Source: a virus
Lineage: Duplodnaviria > Heunggongvirae > Uroviricota > Caudoviricetes
Strand: one strand, 5' to 3'
IMG/VR virus record: IMGVR_UViG_3300035208_002853
Location: 24,033 to 88,032 of that record
Length of the DNA: 64,000 nt
Numbering within the stretch: the first letter of the stretch is position 1; every line of letters begins with the position of its first letter. The position numbers were made by a program, and so were the translations under genes. Shown one piece after another: positions 1 through 64,000 of this stretch. Below the pieces are notes generated by a model that was not told the DNA's origin, did no database searches, and saw only the letters and a list, made by a program, of their open reading frames with translations.

Positions 1-140
1 ATAGCGACGATCTTCTGAGCAATATCCTTATCGGATTCAGAAGCGGTCATTTCCTGTGCTTTATCATACAACGCCTGAGAAGTATTTCTCAACTTCTCGG
101 CACATGCCTTAATTTCATCGATAAATTGTTGGTCTAACAT
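1..140 (-). CDS. hypothetical protein, N-terminal part only (ORF runs off window start)
   Basis: Reverse-strand ATG at 138-140 reads MLDQQFIDEIKACAEKLRNTSQALYDKAQEMTASESDKDIAQKIVA... with no stop before position 1. Confidence 0.3.
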   Translation of the reverse strand, partial: MLDQQFIDEIKACAEKLRNTSQALYDKAQEMTASESDKDIAQKIVA

Positions 141-539: not shown

Positions 540-1817
540 TTACCACGCATCCGCAGTGTTTTCCGCTGCGGTAGGCTCTTCATTAATCTTTATCGGCTCG
601 CTAGGCATCCCAGAAGAGATATCCTTTATGGCGTACACCCTAATTCCGGGAGTATCTCTTTCCTTGTTTATAAACACCTTTCCGATTACCTGTACGATTC
701 CAGCGAGGTTTCCTTTTGGACCTGTTACAGAGTCAAATATAGCCGCATCTCCGATAATATTAATGGAATTAGCACTCATATCTGAAATCGTAGTGTATCC
801 GATCTTAGTTCCCTTCTCTGGATTCTGCTTAACTTCTACAATTGCGTCCCCAAACATTGGCTGCAATTTCACAAACTTACCTGCGAAATTACGAACTCCA
901 TTTAGATCCGCCAGGATCTCGCACGCCATACTGTCATCTATTGTGATCTTCTCATTGGAAGTGTTTGGCTTACTATTAAGGTTCCAGTATGGCCCGTTTT
1001 CTCTAAGAACTCCCTTGTACGTGGCCCCAAAATCCACCTTATGGGCCATCCACTCATCGAATATTGTAGAAACAGTCCGAACCTCGGTAGTTCCGTTTGA
1101 GTTTAAAACGAGAATCTCCATCGAACGAGACATAAGAGGCTCTGCGGAGATCTGACCATCCCTAGTCTTCTTGTAGAGAGGCTCTTTTACGATCTTTCCA
1201 TCTTCTCCCTTTGTAACCTGTCCATCTGCGTCCTTTACGTTTCTCATTACGGGTTTGGGCTCATATGCTACTAGGATTTTAAATGGAGATCCCTGAGCGA
1301 TTGCGGGAACCGTAAAAGTCCTTTCGGTTGTACCGATATCATTGATCCCATAGTTTGTATACCCATCCCTAATAGACTTATTAAGCTTACCTCTATAAAA
1401 TCCCGGCCTAAAAGACTTGTTGTTCCAATGGGTAACCCGAATCCTTACACATCCTTCGGTCTGCGCCTCGCTGTGGAACATATCGGTATTGTTTCCAACT
1501 GGCACAATAATATATAGATTGGAAAACGCCTTGTTATTCTTGGTGAGCTTGGCATCGTCCTGTTGCTCCAAGTAGAACAAAACCTCTGTATCTCCCTTGG
1601 AAGCCGCCTTCTCACAAGAAATAACCTGATTAATAGCCATCTCTTCTACAGAAAGAACTTTTGCAACTCCTCCAACATTCAGATTAAAGGGCTTTGTACC
1701 CGCGTCCTTTAAAACCTTAAATTTTGCCGCATACTTATCCTTAAACGTATCTATAGCGAGTCCTGTAGCTTCAACGCCCTTGTTTAGGGCGGCTTCTATA
1801 TTAAATTTCTCTGTCAT
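540..1817 (-). CDS. hypothetical 425-aa protein; candidate abundant/virion structural protein
   Basis: Long ORF, strong SD (AGGAGC) and upstream promoter-like motif; no catalytic motifs recognised; Gly/Thr-rich, disordered acidic C-terminus. Confidence 0.4.
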   Translation of the reverse strand: MTEKFNIEAALNKGVEATGLAIDTFKDKYAAKFKVLKDAGTKPFNLNVGGVAKVLSVEEMAINQVISCEKAASKGDTEVLFYLEQQDDAKLTKNNKAFSNLYIIVPVGNNTDMFHSEAQTEGCVRIRVTHWNNKSFRPGFYRGKLNKSIRDGYTNYGINDIGTTERTFTVPAIAQGSPFKILVAYEPKPVMRNVKDADGQVTKGEDGKIVKEPLYKKTRDGQISAEPLMSRSMEILVLNSNGTTEVRTVSTIFDEWMAHKVDFGATYKGVLRENGPYWNLNSKPNTSNEKITIDDSMACEILADLNGVRNFAGKFVKLQPMFGDAIVEVKQNPEKGTKIGYTTISDMSANSINIIGDAAIFDSVTGPKGNLAGIVQVIGKVFINKERDTPGIRVYAIKDISSGMPSEPIKINEEPTAAENTADAW

Positions 1818-5455: not shown

Positions 5456-6208
5456 TTAAAGAGGGTTCGGCACCCTCGTACTATATACCTTCTTTAGAGG
5501 TTTAATATCAGATGACTCTTCTTTATTGAACGCGATTCTTAAATATATAGATGTCGCAGGTTCTGTGTACTCCAGTGCGTCCACCTCATTAAACTTTTGG
5601 TTGCTTTTCCCAGAGAGTCCAGTTCCTCCGCTGATTAAACTGCGAGAGGCATAGGAACAGTTATCGGAGGAAAATTTGGCGTCACTAGATGTTACCGCGG
5701 AAGATCCACCACTATTCGTCTCACAAGAGAAAGATGATACCGTATCCCAATCCGAGACTGCATAGGCGTAAACTCTGGGCGGATTCCAAGGTTTTTCTGG
5801 GGTTTTTGTGATATAAGGCCAAGGATCTACGACAATTGGATGTTGAATTATAGGAACACATATCTTATTCCCAGGTCTAAATACCGCGCGAATTAATCCC
5901 ATAGATTTGTTATGGTCAATCTTCGCGATTTTAGCCTCTTCTGAATCAATTCTATAGGCAGTAAATCTTTGATTAGAATGCTCTGGCCTTTCAAGGATCA
6001 TGCTTTGCCCACTCTCGATTCTGTAGATACCGCAGAATTCATCGTCGATATAGATTTCTACATCACAGGGTTTTCCATGACCGTCCTCTTTGTGATGATT
6101 AGAAAGTTTTAAAGAATACTGTTGTCTGTGCCGCATTATTACATAGCTCTCCGAAGTTTCACTTAAACACTCGGGAACTTTTACTGAAAATCCATTGAGA
6201 CTTGCCAT
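5456..6208 (-). CDS. hypothetical protein with Ser-rich C-terminal region
   Basis: 250-aa ORF preceded by TATAAATAG-type motif at 6267-6287. Confidence 0.4.
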   Translation of the reverse strand: MASLNGFSVKVPECLSETSESYVIMRHRQQYSLKLSNHHKEDGHGKPCDVEIYIDDEFCGIYRIESGQSMILERPEHSNQRFTAYRIDSEEAKIAKIDHNKSMGLIRAVFRPGNKICVPIIQHPIVVDPWPYITKTPEKPWNPPRVYAYAVSDWDTVSSFSCETNSGGSSAVTSSDAKFSSDNCSYASRSLISGGTGLSGKSNQKFNEVDALEYTEPATSIYLRIAFNKEESSDIKPLKKVYSTRVPNPL

Positions 6209-8229: not shown

Positions 8230-8439
8230 CTAGACCCTCACCTCTTCAATCTCGTTTCCAAGGAACCACTCTATTTTATCCTTAACTTTTAGGATCATCA
8301 GCCTGATTTTCCAATCCATCGGTTCGTTCTCTTGTTCCTCTAAATATTTAAGAGCATTTTCTAGGAGAGATAAACCATTATCTGTAATCCTATATTCTTT
8401 ATCTTCCATAATATTAAACCTCTTTCTTATTGATATCAA
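8230..8439 (-). CDS. hypothetical small protein (possible wHTH/RRE-like)
   Basis: ORF with GAGG SD. Confidence 0.35.
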   Translation of the reverse strand: MISIRKRFNIMEDKEYRITDNGLSLLENALKYLEEQENEPMDWKIRLMILKVKDKIEWFLGNEIEEVRV

Positions 8440-18375: not shown

Positions 18376-18912
18376 TCACCTAAAACAATTATGTTCCGCC
18401 CTTTCTTCCATCTCTTGTATATAAGAAATAGTATATTGACTCATTAACCAATCATACCTATATTTAATCTCGCGAGCATCCCACAGTGCATGATGTTCAA
18501 TTTTATCTGGCAGATTGGGTAATACAGGATTTACACATTCTGTTGCCATCTGCTTTAAATCTAAACAATACTTTGGCCATCCCACGGGCAAATCGATCAT
18601 GCGTCCGAATAATTGGCACAATACAACCCAATCATAGTCACTGTAGTACCCAATCCAACTGGGATTGCTCTTCTGACTAACAAATTCCACAATCTCTTTA
18701 GCGATAACCCTTCTTCTCTTCCCTTTACTAAAATCCAGGTGCTTTATCACATTATCATAGACCCAATCATCCGCAAGGCTTAATGCGAGTTCAATCTGAT
18801 CCACTACAGCATAATATTCTCTTCCGTCTTCCGCAACAATTCCTATACTCAAAAGCTGAATGGGATAATCGGGACCCGCTTCTATGAATTCGGTGTCTAA
18901 AAAGTATTTCAT
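18376..18912 (-). CDS. DEDDh-type 3'-5' exonuclease
   Basis: FLDTEF (Exo I DxE), YSDYDWVV (Exo II), HHALWDARE (Exo III H-x4-D). Confidence 0.6.
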   Translation of the reverse strand: MKYFLDTEFIEAGPDYPIQLLSIGIVAEDGREYYAVVDQIELALSLADDWVYDNVIKHLDFSKGKRRRVIAKEIVEFVSQKSNPSWIGYYSDYDWVVLCQLFGRMIDLPVGWPKYCLDLKQMATECVNPVLPNLPDKIEHHALWDAREIKYRYDWLMSQYTISYIQEMEERAEHNCFR

Positions 18913-40435: not shown

Positions 40436-40840
40436 TTACTCCTCCAGAAATCTTTTAGGAATCATGCTTGTCTCATTAAATATACCTTTCAATTCAGTTT
40501 GAATATGAGAAATCCTCTCCGCCAGAAATAATCTCATCTCGTTTTGATAATCCTTCTCTGCCAATAGGTCTCTATACATCGCATCTTTATCTTCTATGGT
40601 CAGGTCCGATCTCATTTCTCCCACGGATAACTCTATAGCGGAAAGGGACTCTTCCATAGATTTTAAAACATCTTTGTACACCTTGTCAGATTCCATATTA
40701 TGAGCCGAAATGTAATCCAATCTCTGGATATCTTGGATCATGTGAGCGCAGGCGGTTCTCATTTTCTCCGTAGTAAAGACATCGCATTTCATGTTATATC
40801 TCTGAACCAGCAGAGAATAAATAGTTGGCGGTGGGAACAT
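40436..40840 (-). CDS. hypothetical protein
   Basis: ORF; its 5' end contains the plus-strand promoter of the resolvase gene. Confidence 0.35.
   Translation of the reverse strand: MFPPPTIYSLLVQRYNMKCDVFTTEKMRTACAHMIQDIQRLDYISAHNMESDKVYKDVLKSMEESLSAIELSVGEMRSDLTIEDKDAMYRDLLAEKDYQNEMRLFLAERISHIQTELKGIFNETSMIPKRFLEE
40813..40833 (+). promoter_or_regulatory. plus-strand promoter AGAATAAATAGTTGGCGGTGG driving the resolvase gene
   Basis: Same 23-mer family as 1855/63593; followed by TTAGTACATATT leader-like element and ATG at 40874. Confidence 0.45.
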
Positions 40841-43715: not shown

Positions 43716-46124
43716 ATGGTCTCTCTTATTCAACAATATATAGACAAAGGTTGGGGCATTATCCCCATTCGGCCCAAAGGACATATAAATGAAAAAACAG
43801 GGGAGTCGGATGAAAAAGCACCCTTTGTCACCTGGGGAGGCTATAAAAGTAGTAATGGGCATAAACCTGATGAAGACCAAATTCTTCAGTGGTTATCTCA
43901 ATTTGATCGCGCAGACTGGGCCGTGCTAACAGGTTATGATAATCTTGTTTTAGTAGACATAGACGACCCCAATCTTTATGATCTCTATCTTTCTGATTTT
44001 AAAAAGTGTTTAATGAGAACCCCATCTGGCGGGATGTCTTTTCTTATTAGGAGTACGGTAGTTCCTAAATTTCATGCCCGTATAAATGGAGTCGCCGTAG
44101 ATATTAAAGGTATAGATGGGTATGCCATTCTTCCGTCTCGCGACTTGAGTCAAGAAGAAATAGATCTGGAAGAGAAAGAAGAAAAAGAAGGGACCAAAAG
44201 AGATTTTATACGTCATTGGATTAACTCTGAAGAGCCAGAAGAAATAGAAGACATCTATAGACACCTTGAATCGGTGTTACCTCTCATTAAGCCGGATGTT
44301 AAACCGGGAAAAGGAATTCCTACTGCTCTGGCATGGGCAAGAGAACATAATTTACAAATTGCTTATGATGGTGGAAGATATATCCAAGTTTTGTGCCCCC
44401 ACCATGAGGATACAAAACCATCAATGAGTATATATGCAGATGGATATTTTTGTCACAGCTGCCGGGCAACGGGTGGGTTGTTTTCTCTCATTAAATCTTT
44501 CAGTAATAAAACCGACGATGAGATCTATGCCGATTTTCCAGGGATTAAAAAGCAAAAGAAGACAATAACAGATAATGTAATAGAAATCGTGGGGAACAAC
44601 GTATCATTAGTAAAGGATCAAAACAATAACAGCTACTTCAAACTTCACGACTATTCTGAAATAGGAATAAATCTATTACCAATTACTTCTAAGATCACAA
44701 AATATTGGATTGCAACCACCGCAGAAAAAGTTATAGATAAGCTCCCATCTGAAAGCGTTTTATCCTATGTAATAAAATATTATGATGGAAAATGTATGGC
44801 TACCGGAGAAAAAGCAAAAATATTCCGCCGAGTGGGAGGGGATCTAGCTGGAAAGGTGGTCTGGTATGATCTCGGAAATAACAATTTTGTAAAAATAACA
44901 CCTGATGGGATTGGGGTATATCCTTACTCAGATGTTACTTTTATTAGAGAAACCAATCAAGGGACTCAGAATGTTCCAACAAAGAAAAATATTAAAAGTA
45001 TCTTTAAGTTATTTAATATCATAAACGTAAAAGACGAGGCACAAAAAGTTTTACTTCTAACGTGGATAGTCAACTCGTTACTTCCCTGGGCTCAGAGTCC
45101 CATTCTTCTGTTGTGTGGTACTCGAGGTTCGGGAAAATCTTTTATGGGACGTATAATTAAAAGAACTCTAGATCCCGTGGAAGGAAACGCATCTGAGCTA
45201 TTGGTAAACAAACCGCAGGATTTAAATTATTTAATAGGATTACTTTCGCATAACGCCGTTGCTGTTTTAGATAACATCAGCAGAATTGATAGAGCTACGG
45301 GTGACGTACTATGTAACGTGGTTACTGGTGGTGTAATTTCTACTAGGGAATTGTATACCACCAATGATCAAATATTAATTGATATCCGTTCAAAATTAAT
45401 TATTACAGCCATCAATTCTCAAATATTTGATACCGGAGCAGGAGATCTCGCGGAAAGGACCGTAAGCATAGAAATTTCCAGACCTGAATCAAATTATTTA
45501 TCCGAAGAATGGCTAAATGAGGAATTTGAAACCTATAGGAGCGAAATATTTGGTGCGATCCTTGAACTCATACGCGGATACCTACAGAAAGGAATTCCCA
45601 GAAAGGGCGAGGTATCCGAATTTAGACTGACTACGTTTGCTTCCGTAGGGCGCTATATTTCAGACGTACTAGGATTAAAACCTAGCTTTGATGTCGCTTA
45701 CAGACTGAGCCAGGCTGGAATGTGCCAGACCTCATTGGAAGCAGAACCCGTTACTGAATTCTTTGTTGATTTCGTAAGAAAATATGGAGGCGTAGACTTC
45801 AACAACAATTCAGGATGGGGTATTTCTTCGGATGTATTATTCGGTAAATATTTCAACCAATGGATGATAGAAAACAATAGCGGTGGCATGGACAAAAAGT
45901 TACCTGCAACATCAAGCTCTCTATTAAATAGATTAAAGAGAATAGAACCTGATCTAAAGAGAATCTACTCAATTGTTATTGAGCCCCAAGGAGTCCATAG
46001 AGGAAAGAAGTGGTACAGGTTGTATTGTAAGGACCTTGAAATGCTTAACGAGGGAGCAGAGGAAGAGATCTTGGAGAAACAAACATCTATCGAGAAAGAT
46101 AGTAACGAGGAAGCGGGATGGTAA
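43716..46124 (+). CDS. primase-polymerase (prim-pol) / CHC2 zinc-finger / SF3 (D5-like) helicase fusion replication protein
   Basis: N-terminal prim-pol-like region (VLVDIDDP...), CPHHEDTKPSMSIYADGYFCHSCRATGG (CHC2 Zn finger), Walker A LLCGTRGSGKS with downstream SF3-like region; 802 aa. Confidence 0.75.
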   Translation: MVSLIQQYIDKGWGIIPIRPKGHINEKTGESDEKAPFVTWGGYKSSNGHKPDEDQILQWLSQFDRADWAVLTGYDNLVLVDIDDPNLYDLYLSDFKKCLMRTPSGGMSFLIRSTVVPKFHARINGVAVDIKGIDGYAILPSRDLSQEEIDLEEKEEKEGTKRDFIRHWINSEEPEEIEDIYRHLESVLPLIKPDVKPGKGIPTALAWAREHNLQIAYDGGRYIQVLCPHHEDTKPSMSIYADGYFCHSCRATGGLFSLIKSFSNKTDDEIYADFPGIKKQKKTITDNVIEIVGNNVSLVKDQNNNSYFKLHDYSEIGINLLPITSKITKYWIATTAEKVIDKLPSESVLSYVIKYYDGKCMATGEKAKIFRRVGGDLAGKVVWYDLGNNNFVKITPDGIGVYPYSDVTFIRETNQGTQNVPTKKNIKSIFKLFNIINVKDEAQKVLLLTWIVNSLLPWAQSPILLLCGTRGSGKSFMGRIIKRTLDPVEGNASELLVNKPQDLNYLIGLLSHNAVAVLDNISRIDRATGDVLCNVVTGGVISTRELYTTNDQILIDIRSKLIITAINSQIFDTGAGDLAERTVSIEISRPESNYLSEEWLNEEFETYRSEIFGAILELIRGYLQKGIPRKGEVSEFRLTTFASVGRYISDVLGLKPSFDVAYRLSQAGMCQTSLEAEPVTEFFVDFVRKYGGVDFNNNSGWGISSDVLFGKYFNQWMIENNSGGMDKKLPATSSSLLNRLKRIEPDLKRIYSIVIEPQGVHRGKKWYRLYCKDLEMLNEGAEEEILEKQTSIEKDSNEEAGW

Positions 46125-47297: not shown

Positions 47298-48455
47298 ATG
47301 AAGAAATCCTATAAATTTCGGGTGTTTCCAACTAAGGCTCAACAACATCTCTTAGAAGAAACTCTCGATCTTTGTAGGTGGACCTACAATCAAACCTTGG
47401 CCTACAGAAAGAACATGTGGGAATCAGAGAAAAAGAACGTTTCTAAGTACGATTCCCATCTTTTGCTTCCAACATGGAAGGCTGAAAGGCCAGAGTTGAA
47501 AGGCGTATTTTCTCAGGTTCTACAAAACGCCCAAGAAAGGATTGACCTCGCTTTTAAGGCTTTCTTTAGACGAGTCAAAAACCATGAAAATCCTGGATAT
47601 CCTAGATTTAAAGGAAAGGGGAACTATGACTCGTTTACGTACCCTCAAAGCGGATTCTCTGTAAAGGATAACAAAACTCTTTACCTCTCCAAAATCGGAG
47701 ATGTCAAGATAAAGATTCATAGAGAAATTGAGGGCCAAATAAAAAGGTTGACCGTCCTTAGAACCATACGGAACAAATGGTATGTTACGTTCTCCGTAGA
47801 ACAAGAAACTATATTCATACCTTCTGATAACGGTCCAGTAATCGGAATTGATCTTGGGTTAGAAAGCTTTTTAACATTCTCAGATGGCAGCAAGGTTGAT
47901 AATCCAAGGTTCTTCCGATCTGAAGAACATTTATTGGCTAAGAAACAGAGTCGAAGAGACAAACTCCCTAAAGGCTCCGTAGAAAGGAAGAAAACAACAA
48001 GGGTTATCCAGAGAATTCATGAGAGAATAACCAATAAACGTTCTAATTTTGCCCATCAACTCAGTCATAAATTAGTAACAAAATATTCTGTAGTTTGCTT
48101 AGAAGATCTTAATATAAAATCAATGCTCAGAGATGGAACACGCGGACTGTCTAAGTCTATCTCAGACGCTTCTTGGAATCTTCTACTCCGATTAATTTCC
48201 TACAAGGCTGAAAGTGCCGGTTCGAAAGCGATCTTTGTAGATCCTCGAAATACGTCTCAGATGTGTTCTTTCTGCGGAGCGATGGTTCCGAAGCAGTTAA
48301 AGGACCGAATCCATAAATGCCCATTCTGCGGCTTAGAAATGGACCGAGACAAAAACGCTGCTATAAATATACTCAGATTGGGATTACAATCTGTCGGTAA
48401 AACCGATCTTAGATCGGAAGTCCGTAGAAGCCCCATCTTTCAGGATGGGGAATGA
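47298..48455 (+). CDS. tnpB: TnpB (IS605 OrfB-type RNA-guided RuvC-like nuclease)
   Basis: IGIDLGLESF (RuvC-I), CLEDLNIK (RuvC-II), CSFCG...HKCPFCG Zn finger, DRDKNAAINIL (RuvC-III). Confidence 0.85.
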   Translation: MKKSYKFRVFPTKAQQHLLEETLDLCRWTYNQTLAYRKNMWESEKKNVSKYDSHLLLPTWKAERPELKGVFSQVLQNAQERIDLAFKAFFRRVKNHENPGYPRFKGKGNYDSFTYPQSGFSVKDNKTLYLSKIGDVKIKIHREIEGQIKRLTVLRTIRNKWYVTFSVEQETIFIPSDNGPVIGIDLGLESFLTFSDGSKVDNPRFFRSEEHLLAKKQSRRDKLPKGSVERKKTTRVIQRIHERITNKRSNFAHQLSHKLVTKYSVVCLEDLNIKSMLRDGTRGLSKSISDASWNLLLRLISYKAESAGSKAIFVDPRNTSQMCSFCGAMVPKQLKDRIHKCPFCGLEMDRDKNAAINILRLGLQSVGKTDLRSEVRRSPIFQDGE

Positions 48456-53177: not shown

Positions 53178-54464
53178 TTAAATCACCATCCTCCTCTTAT
53201 ATTCTTCAACTTCTGCCCTTACTTCATCTGGATTGTTAACATGAGTTAAATAGTCTTCCAGAAGATCCGCCTCACCCGCGAGTTCTGCAATCCATTCTAT
53301 ATGTTTTTCCTTCTTCTCCTGTTCATCCGCGAGAGACGAAATATCTCTCATAAAGTCGGACAAATGGGGAAGATTGAACTCGTTATAGATTAGAGTACCA
53401 TATATTCCTCTCAATTGAATTGCATCGGGAGATCTGGTTACTCCCATCGGATTTACAAATAATTGCCATCCTGAGAGGGTTACTATGAATGATCCCTTAT
53501 TTTCTTCCTTATACTGTATTGTACCATCCCAGAACTTTGTATCGTCCCAGAACAAAACCATCTTGTTCTTTTCTTTGGATTCTATATTATAATTTTGTGA
53601 TCTAGAGTAGTACCCGTTGAGAGTATCTTCTCTTATCAGTCTGAAGTCAAACACAGATTCTAAATCATCACTTGCAGATTGAACCTCGTCATTAAATTTT
53701 TCAATTTGTGATCTAGAGTAGTACCCGTTGAGAGTATCCTCTCCTATCAGTCTAAAGTCAAATACAGATTCTAGATCATCACTCGCAGATTGGACCTCAT
53801 CATTAAATTTTTCAATTTGAGGAATCCACTCTTGGATAATTTTGTTTTTATTCCTGTCGTTGTATACCTTCGCATCCTCTAGAGTTTTAAAACTCTTAAA
53901 TTTAAGAATAGCATCATGTTCAGGAAAATGCTCATTAAATTGGGTTGCGATCCCGAGCATTCTATTGATCATGTCCTTAAATCTATAATGGGCGTAGATA
54001 CCTACTACGTAGTCTATTTTGTTGGTGGGCTTGTCGGTTAGTGAGTAGGTTGCAATAACCTTCACCAAGGGGGTTTCATACAATACCTCTTCATTGGCTG
54101 ATCCTGAAGAATTACAACGGTACGAAATATGGCTATCCCGCTGGAAATTACCCATAGTCGGAATGGAATGTTTCAAACTCGCGAGGGTTATTTGTTTCCT
54201 GAATAAATCCTCTTGATCTGAGAGAAAATTCCTAATTCCATCAATTTGTTCGTTCTTCGCCCTATAAGATTTATCCCTCTGGAGGTGATTTTCTCCCTCT
54301 AGGGACTGAATAGCCCATCTCTGCTCTTGGAGTTGGGATGCCCTAGAATTAAATCCAAGTTCATCAATAGTCCACTGAGATTCAATGGCTTTCTTCTCTT
54401 CATCGGACTTAATTCTCTGCTCTAGGATTTCTTCAATGGTGGGTATCATAACTTCAGTCTCCAA
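53178..54464 (-). CDS. hypothetical 428-aa protein containing an internal 37-aa tandem duplication
   Basis: ...IEKFNDEVQSASDDLESVFDFRLI(G/R)EDTLNGYYSRSQ x2; upstream ATGTATAGTATATACTG motif. Confidence 0.45.
   Translation of the reverse strand: METEVMIPTIEEILEQRIKSDEEKKAIESQWTIDELGFNSRASQLQEQRWAIQSLEGENHLQRDKSYRAKNEQIDGIRNFLSDQEDLFRKQITLASLKHSIPTMGNFQRDSHISYRCNSSGSANEEVLYETPLVKVIATYSLTDKPTNKIDYVVGIYAHYRFKDMINRMLGIATQFNEHFPEHDAILKFKSFKTLEDAKVYNDRNKNKIIQEWIPQIEKFNDEVQSASDDLESVFDFRLIGEDTLNGYYSRSQIEKFNDEVQSASDDLESVFDFRLIREDTLNGYYSRSQNYNIESKEKNKMVLFWDDTKFWDGTIQYKEENKGSFIVTLSGWQLFVNPMGVTRSPDAIQLRGIYGTLIYNEFNLPHLSDFMRDISSLADEQEKKEKHIEWIAELAGEADLLEDYLTHVNNPDEVRAEVEEYKRRMVI
53598..53819. repeat. 2 x 111-bp in-frame tandem duplication inside CDS
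   Basis: Second copy starts at 53709; about 10 mismatches in 111 bp. Confidence 0.7.
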
Positions 54465-54509
54465 CGCGCCCTCGCCTTTCAGGCTCAGTATATACTATAC
54501 ATGGCTAGG

Positions 54510-54833
54510 TTAAATAGTTGTTGGTAGTAGACTTTTAAGAAACTCAATTTCCATTTTAACTAACCTCTCACACTCTGGACAATAAATAACATCTCCATCT
54601 ATATAATCCATTTCGTGTTCATCGGTAATATGTTCCTGCCAGTCGTTATAAGGAGTGTTTTCACAACACCTTTCTCCTGTTTTATTAGAAATCGGGCACC
54701 CATCACATTCTATGTCCCAAAACAGTTGACACAGAGGGCAATTAGAGGGTCCCTTATCCCTTCCAATTCCCGCCAAAATGTTTTCATGTTTTTTAATGCT
54801 GCCCTGTAGGGCTTCTAATGTTTCAGCGTCCAT
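54510..54833 (-). CDS. Zn-binding hypothetical protein
   Basis: CPLCQ...CDGCP...CPECE. Confidence 0.4.
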   Translation of the reverse strand: MDAETLEALQGSIKKHENILAGIGRDKGPSNCPLCQLFWDIECDGCPISNKTGERCCENTPYNDWQEHITDEHEMDYIDGDVIYCPECERLVKMEIEFLKSLLPTTI

Positions 54834-59627: not shown

Positions 59628-59815
59628 ATCTAATACTATATTTTATAGCCATGATTTTTATCGGGCGATGGGTGACACAAATTCCAATAGCACTTATTAG
59701 AGGATATAATTTAGATGATTTTATTGGAATGTATAAGATGTGTCCCTGGTTTCTTGCCCTAGATATAATTCTAGCAGCGGGATTTGTGGGGTTTGTAATA
59801 TCGACAACTATTTAA
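59624..59815 (+). CDS. small two-TM membrane protein
   Basis: MNLILYFIAMIFIGRW...FLALDIILAAGFVGFVI; ATGA overlap with upstream gene (track ORF over-extended). Confidence 0.4.
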   Translation: MNLILYFIAMIFIGRWVTQIPIALIRGYNLDDFIGMYKMCPWFLALDIILAAGFVGFVISTTI

Positions 59816-59853
59816 GTTAGAAATGTATAGTATATACTGGAGATGTAAATCAC

Positions 59854-62423: not shown

Positions 62424-63074
62424 TTAAGCCACCCCATCAGGCCCGAATTCCACATACCACCCATAACCAACAGGTGGTTCTGGGGTCCAAAACATCTTAA
62501 ACGCCTCCACAGGGGTAATCTCTCCTCGCCAGCAATGGGCTTCGTGATCAGAATTAAATTCTGCGTCGGAGATATAGAATCCCCGATTCAATTTCGGGAC
62601 CCAAACATAGGTCGTCCCGTTAGAACGAGCCCAAAGGGCCTCATCCATGTAAGGGGCGAATTCTGCGGGGAGAGTCCGATTCGCCAGTCCCTTGTCTCCT
62701 GATATACAAATCCTTGTTCCTGGGAGGATTAGTCCCTTTATGGCTCCTTCGGTGAGGAACGGGAACCATGCGGTTATCTGCTCATACGGAAACTGAGCCC
62801 ACATAGATACGTGGAATTTCGGAGAATTCATAATTTCGTGATGACTCATAAGTCCGTCAGGAGTTACATAAATCGAGCCCTCGTCATCCCAAACGCTCAT
62901 GATCCAAGCCGCATATCCGCCGTAATTCTGTCGAACCATTTCTAGGGCATCTTCTCTAGAGATCTTCTTTGGAACTGCGGGAAACGTTCCTCTTAGAGAG
63001 AATTTTCCCGTCTCACTGTAGTCGAGAATTGCAGTACCATTTTCGCTTCCTACTGGAATAGTTAAAAACGACAT
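62424..63074 (-). CDS. hypothetical protein (GC-rich island)
   Basis: 216-aa ORF. Confidence 0.4.
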   Translation of the reverse strand: MSFLTIPVGSENGTAILDYSETGKFSLRGTFPAVPKKISREDALEMVRQNYGGYAAWIMSVWDDEGSIYVTPDGLMSHHEIMNSPKFHVSMWAQFPYEQITAWFPFLTEGAIKGLILPGTRICISGDKGLANRTLPAEFAPYMDEALWARSNGTTYVWVPKLNRGFYISDAEFNSDHEAHCWRGEITPVEAFKMFWTPEPPVGYGWYVEFGPDGVA

Positions 63075-63076
63075 TT

Positions 63077-63538
63077 TTAAGCCACCTCCCCATTCAATAT
63101 AGCCGCCATCTTTTCCGCCTTCTCTGAGATCTCTTCATATTCTTTCGCATATTTTTCAAGTTCGAGAGCATACAATCTCAAGAATTCTGGCAGTCTCTTA
63201 ATGGCGGCTTTCTTAATTGGCCTTCCGCAGTCTGTAATGACTTCGTTATCCACTTCCATTGTATCCGAAACGGAGTAGAGGCCCCAATCTTTTCTTACGG
63301 AAAGCCTATAATTTACTTTCCCGAAATATTCATGATTATCAGTATAAAATATTTCTGGATCTATAAATTTGATCCCCGCCTTCGGGCCTATAATCTCAAA
63401 ATACCTGTCGATTGATTTCAAAGCGGCACTGAGTTTATCGCTGTAGCGGACCAAGTTTTCTGCTCGCTCGTTTATGTACTGTACGGTTTCTGTAGCGATT
63501 CCTGTTTCGACTTCCGTCATCTCAATATTTCCATTCAT
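63077..63538 (-). CDS. hypothetical protein
   Basis: Start re-assigned to second ATG (MNGNIEMTEVE) behind AAGAGGAAAT SD. Confidence 0.4.
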   Translation of the reverse strand: MNGNIEMTEVETGIATETVQYINERAENLVRYSDKLSAALKSIDRYFEIIGPKAGIKFIDPEIFYTDNHEYFGKVNYRLSVRKDWGLYSVSDTMEVDNEVITDCGRPIKKAAIKRLPEFLRLYALELEKYAKEYEEISEKAEKMAAILNGEVA

Positions 63539-63592
63539 AGTATTTCCTCTTGGTATGGGACTTCCGCCCCACATCCAATACCTATAGAGGTG

Positions 63593-63615
63593 CTACTAGA
63601 ATAAATAGTTGTTGG
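63593..63615 (+). promoter_or_regulatory. plus-strand promoter-like ACTAGAATAAATAGTTGTTGGTATG pointing into the tandem repeat array
   Basis: 20/23 identical to copies at 1855 and 54502. Confidence 0.35.
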
Positions 63616-63625
63616 TATGTGCTGA

Positions 63626-64000
63626 CCTTAATTTTTCAAACCCAAAATCTAAGAAACTGAGATTAATTTTTCAAACCCAAAATCTAAGAAACTGAGATTA
63701 ATTTTTCAAACCCAAAATCTAAGAAACTGAGATTAATTTTTCAAACCCAAAATCTAAGAAACTGAGATTAATTTTCAGACTGGAAATCTAAGAAACTGAG
63801 ATTAATTTTCAGACTGGAAATCTAAGAAACTGGGATTAATTTTCAGACTGGAAATCTAAGAAACTGGGATTAATTTTCAAACTGGAAATCTAAGAAACTG
63901 GGATTAATTTTCAAACTGGAAATCTAAGAAACTGGGATTAATTTTCAAACTGGAAATCTAAGAAACTGGGATTAATTTTCAAACTGAAAATCTAAGAAAC
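63626..64000. repeat. tandem direct repeat array, at least 11 copies of a 34-35-bp unit, running off the window end
   Basis: Unit GATTAATTTT(T)-[CAAACCCAAAA | CAGACTGGAAA | CAAACTGGAAA]-TCTAAGAAACTG(A/G). Copies 1-4, 5-7 and 8-11 form three sub-families; no unique spacers. Confidence 0.9.

Follow-up and report, generated by a model that had tools for sequence, protein, structure and literature searches.

The stretch of DNA analyzed here (the window, 64 kb) encodes a phage replication and nucleotide-metabolism module that includes an SNF2 helicase, an ATP-dependent ligase, an RNA ligase, NrdD, thymidylate-synthase-like, dCTP-deaminase-like and DHH-family proteins, and TnpB. A Prim-Pol/Zn-ribbon/P-loop protein is encoded 17.5 kb from the tandem repeat array that occupies the end of the window, and DNA polymerase III alpha is encoded just outside the window. 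The window contains no tRNA. The TnpB / IS605 OrfB-type gene (47298-48455, +), with HTH_OrfB_IS605, OrfB_IS605, and Cas12f1-like TNB domains, lies in a short plus-strand gene block beside the Prim-Pol/Zn-ribbon/P-loop gene (43716-46124).

The 686-aa DUF8224 protein is 53-55% identical to proteins of Bastille-like Bacillus phages and of Clostridioides phage pCD1602_4. Among the cultured distant relatives sharing DUF8224 (Bacillus phage TsarBomba and Clostridioides pCD1602_4), no array was found within 12 kb. When the region was compared with 50,697 phage records by megablast and blastn, no DNA-level match was obtained, and the two adjacent proteins gave no match to the same records by tblastn. 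Exact-pattern scans of IMG/VR for the repeat were negative, and a genome-collection scan returned only an unrelated Flavobacterium low-complexity repeat.

The tandem array and its two flanks

On the near side of the array lies a leftward operon (Table 1). A search for Pfam and PHROG domains in the flanking genes gave no match. The AlphaFold model of the 153-aa neighbor (pLDDT 88) has a helix-sheet-helix arrangement, and its comparison with the PDB gave no significant fold match and no match to a DNA-binding fold.

The original prediction had placed a spacer-less, head-to-tail array of at least 11 repeats of 34-35 bp at 63593-64000. TRF bore this out from 63628 onward (period 34, 10.9 copies in the window, 97% matches, score 563), but the part from 63593 to 63627 is a unique leader. 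The array is by far the top-scoring repeat of the window, and both TRF and unit splitting place its units strictly head-to-tail without spacers. The proposed 23-bp constant part was recovered as well, TCTAAGAAACTGRGATTAATTTT being present in 10 exact copies versus 0.00 expected from shuffles; one position of the constant part alternates between A and G. As for the three blocks of variants that had been counted as 4+3+4, the blocks exist but the counts do not hold, unit splitting giving 4+3+3+1. The CTGA of the junction resembles the 3' end of the unit, and the junction is, judged from its sequence, a partial flanking repeat.

Table 1. Features of the array locus in the window and of the corresponding loci in related phages
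Feature	Position	Strand	Description
Second gene of the leftward operon	62424..63074	-	216 aa; otherwise found only in L009, the closest relative (92% identical)
First gene of the leftward operon	63077..63538	-	153 aa; ATG at 63538, RBS GAGGAAA; conserved array neighbor in relatives
Conserved promoter-like element	63578..63617 (core 63597-63617)	-	reads TACCAACAACTATTTATTCTAGTAGCACCTCTATAGGTAT toward the 153-aa gene
Further copies of the element	1860-1880, 2837-2857, 40813-40833, 54506-54526 (plus coordinates)	-	strand given is the functional one
Further copy of the element	59799-59819	+	strand given is the functional one; matches the originally predicted orientation at 59819 on the minus strand
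Junction	63618..63627	.	10 bp, TGTGCTGACC, between the promoter-like element and the first unit (read from sequence)
In-window array	63628..64000	.	units 1-4, 35 bp; units 5-11, 34 bp
Array units 1-4			4 x 35 bp, TTAATTTTTCAAACCCAAAATCTAAGAAACTGAGA (with ..TTTTTCAAACCCAAAA..)
Array, first block of 34-bp units			3 x 34 bp, variant CAGACTGGAAA
Array, second block of 34-bp units			3 x 34 bp, variant CAAACTGGAAA
Array, last in-window unit			1 copy, cut by the window end, variant CAAACTGAAAA
L009 / L010 array			34/35-bp unit as in the window, 3.2 and 4.3 copies in two samples; 153-aa homologue 84%; spanned; directly upstream of the exonuclease gene
L048 array			18 bp x13.4, perfect; 153-aa homologue 75%; complete
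L021 array			17 bp x7.9, perfect; 153-aa homologue 75%; complete
L022 / L024 array			17-bp array of L021; 153-aa homologue 75%; contigs start inside the array
L013 array			17 bp x4.4 or more, perfect; 153-aa homologue 68%; at contig end
L011 array			16 bp x6.9, perfect; 153-aa homologue 80%; spanned
430-aa HNH gene	L009 3044-4336; L010 3027-4394; L011 8530-9828	-	six ~45-aa HTH modules in tandem, with an HNH motif at the C-terminus

No other 370-bp stretch of the 64-kb window has a GC content as low as that of the array (27.8%) or is thermodynamically as unstable. The plus strand of the array is A-rich (A 43%, T 29%). GC skew in the window tracks gene orientation, and the array sits at the window end. 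A coding repeat was rejected: all six reading frames are interrupted by stops, and the period is indivisible by 3. We found no unit of the array elsewhere in the window, where tandem repeats are otherwise rare: only one other array scored above 60 in TRF, and it is coding. This only other sizeable tandem repeat (53594-53819) is a 111-bp x2 duplication, 93% identical, which makes a 37-aa coding repeat within a 423-aa ORF (53178-54449, -).

The source contig of the window (ENA ERZ27247350 k141_1016568, 88,173 bp) ends inside the array. As predicted, the array continues beyond the window; it runs for another 127 bp to the contig end (units 12-15), bringing the total to at least 14.6 units. Such a break is expected for a MEGAHIT k141 contig within a repeat of this kind. 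By a spaced pattern scan of JGI metagenomes, we found the same repeat in a second, independent contig, Ga0172381_10014539 (L004), which also ends within the array and shows its far side. There, the last partial unit TTAATTTTCAGGCCCAAAA is followed by 66 bp of unique sequence and then by the start of a gene for a 184-aa Rv2179c-like 3'-5' exonuclease, which is directed rightward and reads away from the array. Since the 153-aa gene on the near side is leftward and the exonuclease gene on the far side is rightward, the array fills the spacer between divergent genes.

The presence of the repeat in the independent JGI contig, together with shorter versions that are fully spanned with unique flanks in relatives, sets aside the possibility of an assembly artifact. 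The array is real; its function is what we infer below. It also accounts for the assemblies of these phages breaking at this point.

A second Rv2179c-like 3'-5' exonuclease gene lies in the window (18376-18912, -), and its product is about 50% identical to that of the far flank. The far-flank exonuclease has an 85% identical copy in another phage (L051), beside a D5_N primase-helicase. A homologue search with the far-flank exonuclease returned no identical protein. No array was found upstream of the exonuclease gene in L005, whose product is 84% identical, and the closest long contig with an exonuclease homologue carries that gene in a different context and has no array.

Orientation of the promoter-like element

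A promoter at 63593-63615 had been predicted to point into the array. The sequence in question is the conserved promoter-like element of Table 1, and its functional orientation is most probably the opposite one. We scanned the window and nine related loci for AACTATTTA, allowing one mismatch, followed by TATAG. The layout that emerged is AACTATTTA...TATAG...RBS-ATG toward a gene. When read as AACTATTTA->, all bona fide copies have an RBS and a start codon 45-121 nt downstream, and nine copies of the form AACTATTTA-N9-ATGTATAGTATAT stand 45-51 nt before the start codon. The reverse reading of the copies almost never leads to a start codon; in the window, every copy read in the predicted orientation immediately precedes a gene encoded on the other strand. 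The cassette, which also has the alternative form AACTATTTATnCTA-N7-9-CTATAGGTAT, is common to all related metagenomic loci.

In L021 and L048, whose arrays are complete, the element stands on both sides of the array in inverted orientation, so that each copy faces its own gene, and in L013 a tandem pair of copies is seen, each ahead of a gene. At the window locus, the conserved element is found in one flank, and in the other there is a promoter-like sequence of a different kind. Only 10-14 bp separate the array end from the upstream edge of the flanking element in the window, L013, L021, and L048. A promoter directed into the array was thus not borne out: bona fide copies are all directed toward genes, and those around complete arrays form an outward inverted pair. 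Most probably, as far as its layout indicates, the element at 63578-63617 drives the 153-aa operon and is directed away from the array.

A consensus scan found no plus-strand sigma-70-like site upstream of the window array. The element itself does not fit the sigma-70 -35 consensus and may require a phage-encoded factor. Its CACTATAGG part resembles, in what we take to be a likeness, the initiation region of T7-type promoters. With the orientation corrected, AACTATTTA-N9-ATGTATAGTAT, located 45-51 nt before start codons, is a usable promoter model for annotation.

Other promoter-like pairs were seen in or near the arrays. A sigma-70-like TTGATA-17-TAGAAT is directed into the array of one relative, and the composite unit of the window contains a weak TTGAAA-16/17-TAGATT on the minus strand (7 hits vs 2.6 +/- 1.6 expected). 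The CAGAC units have lost the intra-unit pair, the L048 and L021 arrays do not contain it, and neither pair is conserved across arrays.

RNA folds of three units gave z-scores of -0.36, +0.37, and +0.73 relative to shuffles. An Rfam search of the window and the relatives, at gathering thresholds and at E<=10, returned only chance-level alignments to snoR64 and RAGATH-12. The RAGATH-12 alignment (63544-63598, -; E = 10, 13 bits, not significant) covers the UAGUAGCAC..UAUAGG promoter-like segment and a small GC hairpin of the 153-aa leader.

Arrays at the same place in related phages

We found 30 homologues of the 153-aa neighbor in metagenomes. Five related lineages, in which this protein is 68-84% identical, carry arrays at the same place (Table 1). 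Distant homologues (55-64% identical) have no array at the locus, and the group at 64% identity has a short palindrome at the corresponding position. All arrays are A-rich on the same strand. The copy numbers of 3.2 and 4.3 in two samples of one relative support the earlier suggestion of expansion by local duplication.

Gene content downstream of the 153-aa gene varies from lineage to lineage. We looked across the lineages for a co-varying DNA-binding gene beside the arrays and found none, the downstream genes being unrelated. In L009, L010, and L011, a 430-aa homing-endonuclease-like gene, absent from the window, lies exactly between the promoter element of the 153-aa gene and the array, with its stop codon in or next to the first unit.

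Three further observations concern the surroundings of the locus. A long hairpin (GCTGAGATG...CATCTCAGC) is conserved in three relatives (L021 150-245, L048 about 5535-5630, L011 about 8290-8365), where it sits in the leader of about 110 nt of a 129-aa-family gene on the other side of the array; it has no Rfam match and may be a structured 5'UTR. In two distant loci without an array (L014 7958-9416 and L035 2592-3841), the 153-aa homologue forms a co-directional group with genes of Csf3-like, PAPS-reductase/DUF3440, and ParB_N-like type, possibly for DNA modification or anti-defense. A tRNA-Gln gene (anticodon TTG) lies at 669-745 (+) of L013, between two genes that follow the 17-bp array.

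To compare the units, we aligned them in the plus orientation of the window and calculated p-values against shuffles. The L048 18-mer, in the rotation ATTAATTTTCAAACTGGA, is an exact 18/18 substring of the 34-bp window unit (p<0.0005). The L021 17-mer shares TCTAAGAAAC with the window unit (14/17, p about 0.002), and the L021 and L013 units match at 13/17 positions (p 0.007). The L011 16-mer has no significant similarity to any other unit, and comparison on the opposite strand gave no comparable match. The L048 and L021 matches imply that the window 34-mer joins an 18-mer of L048 type to a 16-mer of L021 type; AAACTG is present in both halves.

Apart from the promoter-like element, the 5'UTRs adjoining the arrays have diverged beyond recognition or alignment. 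Related units beside such diverged 5'UTRs favor constraint, or recent exchange, over simple neutral drift. Taken together, the comparisons show, at the level of sequence, a single array locus with conserved place and strand polarity and with rapid unit turnover in one clade of uncultivated phages.

Possible functions of the array

Our leading reading, unproven as it is, takes the array for an iteron-type origin or a multivalent DNA-binding-protein site. Tentatively, and short of calling it probable, we regard the array as an iteron-like protein-binding and unwinding region and a candidate replication origin; both the protein binding and the origin function are what we infer. The array could then be a fast-evolving cluster of iteron-like sites that recur at a basic interval of about 16-18 bp, and in the window two diverged sub-units would have been fused into the 34/35-bp unit. 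Acting as DNA, it would offer a putative sequence-specific DNA-binding protein a multivalent loading platform within the spacer between two divergent promoters, an arrangement seen in the relatives with complete arrays. As the most easily melted DNA of the region, it may be opened more readily when divergent transcription on both sides adds negative supercoiling. The leading specific role would be that of a replication origin or unwinding region. Copy number would shift by slippage or unequal recombination and appears non-critical.

The evidence for the iteron-like reading starts with position, between the leftward 153-aa gene and the rightward exonuclease gene, and with the recurrence of perfect arrays at this place in relatives whose neighbor protein is 68-84% identical. 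The units are related and keep a constant polarity even though the 5'UTRs are diverged beyond alignment. The array is also the lowest-GC and least stable 370 bp of 64 kb, its unit is found nowhere else in the window, and the window is a replication and nucleotide-metabolism module. In addition, there is a precedent in T4 oriE (PMC3016281).

Several observations count against it. No recognizable initiator, Rep-like, ParB-like, or other DNA-binding gene is adjacent, and the 153-aa neighbor, which has no DNA-binding fold match, is also present in distant relatives without an array. DnaA boxes are not enriched at the array. Perfect copies in numbers from 3 to at least 15 are equally typical of neutral slippage repeats, and the 16-18-bp spacing is not helically phased, unlike that of classical 22-bp iterons. 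Finally, the other units show no significant similarity to that of L011, and the similarity of units across lineages could reflect recent recombination rather than constraint.

We compared the array with known systems. Iteron origins such as R6K gamma, P1 oriR, and lambda ori contain direct repeats of 17-22 bp in one orientation together with AT-rich, meltable DNA. In such origins the initiator gene adjoins or overlaps the repeats, which usually number 3-9, are non-identical, and keep helical phase; DnaA boxes are often present too. The array is like them in combining one-orientation direct repeats with AT-rich, easily melted DNA. Where at least 3 direct repeats of about 17-22 bp in one orientation characterize an iteron region, the array has at least 14.6 units, each with two 16-18-bp sub-units. 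It differs in that an adjacent initiator, non-identical phased copies, and DnaA boxes were not found at the array, and none of the flanking genes is a recognizable initiator (Rep) gene adjoining or overlapping the repeats.

The closest precedent for the array would, by analogy, be the iteron cluster of T4 oriE, where clustered direct repeats lie near an early promoter at a strand-switch region (PMC3016281). A role of this cluster in replication is suspected but unproven, and similar repeats occur at the syntenic place in relatives (PMC3016281, which also mentions R6K). Both are direct-repeat clusters of a large lytic phage, located beside an early-type promoter at a switch of the transcribed strand, with syntenic repeats in relatives. 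The T4 repeats, however, are 12 nt long and spaced, whereas the array units are 16-35 bp long, head-to-tail, perfect, and highly variable in number. The two have no sequence similarity, and we identified no repE-like genes here.

The main rival explanation, possible though doubtful, is that the array is a hypervariable minisatellite (VNTR) with no sequence-specific function, which would have arisen from local sequence within a dispensable promoter spacer and been homogenized by slippage or unequal recombination. The 100% unit matches in L011, L013, L021, and L048, the copy numbers of 3.2 and 4.3 in two samples of the same relative, and the turnover of unit type between lineages are all consistent with this. 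So are the next clade, which has a short palindrome instead of an array, and the failure to find a cognate protein. Borg repeats are perfect intergenic tandem repeats that are A-rich, have partial flanking units, and have unit lengths not divisible by three (PMC9879509); the array shares all of these features with them, as well as fast change between close relatives. A perfect head-to-tail order with partial flanking units, A bias, and variable copy number is what the array displays, and function is still compatible with it. Unlike the array, which is a single locus kept in several lineages of a bacterial-type phage, Borg repeats are found all over the genome, each locus having acquired them independently. 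Tandem repeats other than the array are rare in the phage genome, which argues against a genome-wide repeat-making tendency as in Borgs. Moreover, one locus and one polarity are kept across lineages whose neighbor protein is only 68-84% identical, and the 18/18 unit match and the shared 10-mer outlast the diverged adjacent non-coding DNA.

We consider it unlikely that the array is operator- or centromere-like, with a phage regulator polymerizing on the repeats and co-regulating (silencing or activating) the two outward promoters. Known arrays of this type are F sopC (12 x 43 bp, SopB-sopC), R1/pSK41 parC (ParR-parC), and the omega-protein heptads of pSM19035. Like them, the array is spacer-less, head-to-tail, and in a promoter region, and its variable copy number has a counterpart in systems such as sopC and parC, whose function tolerates copy-number change; its ends, in the window as in L013, L021, and L048, also come as close as 10-14 bp to promoter-like elements. 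Those systems, however, adjoin genes for a partition NTPase and a centromere-binding protein, and no such pair, nor any ParA, ParM, TubZ, ParB, or RHH gene, was found in the flanking operons of the array. In addition, the downstream operon genes vary between lineages, and in L009 and L011 the HNH endonuclease gene puts 1.3 kb between the array and one promoter, with the array retained.

A further reading, which we rate as quite unlikely, makes the array a fast-evolving specificity cassette. The turnover between 18-mer, 17-mer, and fused 34-mer would then re-tune recognition by a putative initiator or regulator, so that closely related co-infecting phages would gain distinct, incompatible origins or control regions. 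The multi-HTH HNH homing endonuclease at the promoter/array junction of some lineages might contribute to such turnover.

That the array marks a genome terminus, a packaging region, or a terminal-repeat boundary, as had also been proposed, is very unlikely. The idea draws on the many contigs that stop in or at the array (the window contig, L004, L013, L022, L024, L012, L023, and L047) and on the cluster of small early-type genes beyond it, of a kind that recalls the terminal-redundancy regions of SPO1-like phages. Contig breaks, however, are expected at any repeat longer than the assembler k-mer, in relatives five contigs cross shorter arrays completely and reach the same two flanks, and there is no terminase gene in the vicinity.

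Least probable of all, to the point of being hardly credible, is a transcript from the predicted promoter that would be a repetitive non-coding RNA or would mimic CRISPR repeats: a 34-35-bp unit falls within the CRISPR-repeat length range, the element read toward the array contains what we take to be a T4-late-like TATAAATA, and the sigma-70-like pair of one relative and the weak minus-strand pair of the composite unit could be cited for it, but bona fide elements face genes rather than the array, the intra-unit pair is not kept, the unit folds no better than shuffles, Rfam gave no match, and every frame contains stops. A CRISPR-repeat or Cas12a-like mimic was rejected, as the array lacks spacers, Rfam with its CRISPR-DR families gave no match, and the 16-18-bp units of the relatives are too short.

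An iteron-like or VNTR array in a phage control region is a kind already known; what is added here is the far flank, the relatives, and the ancestry of the units. If it is only a minisatellite, the array is an ordinary feature whose main value is that of a strain marker. If it is an origin or loading platform, it would mark the replication or control center of a clade of uncultivated large phages from anaerobic-type metagenomes that has no cultured relative at the DNA level, and it would offer a natural series of iteron variants (16, 17, 18, 34, and 35 bp) for the study of how binding-site arrays evolve.
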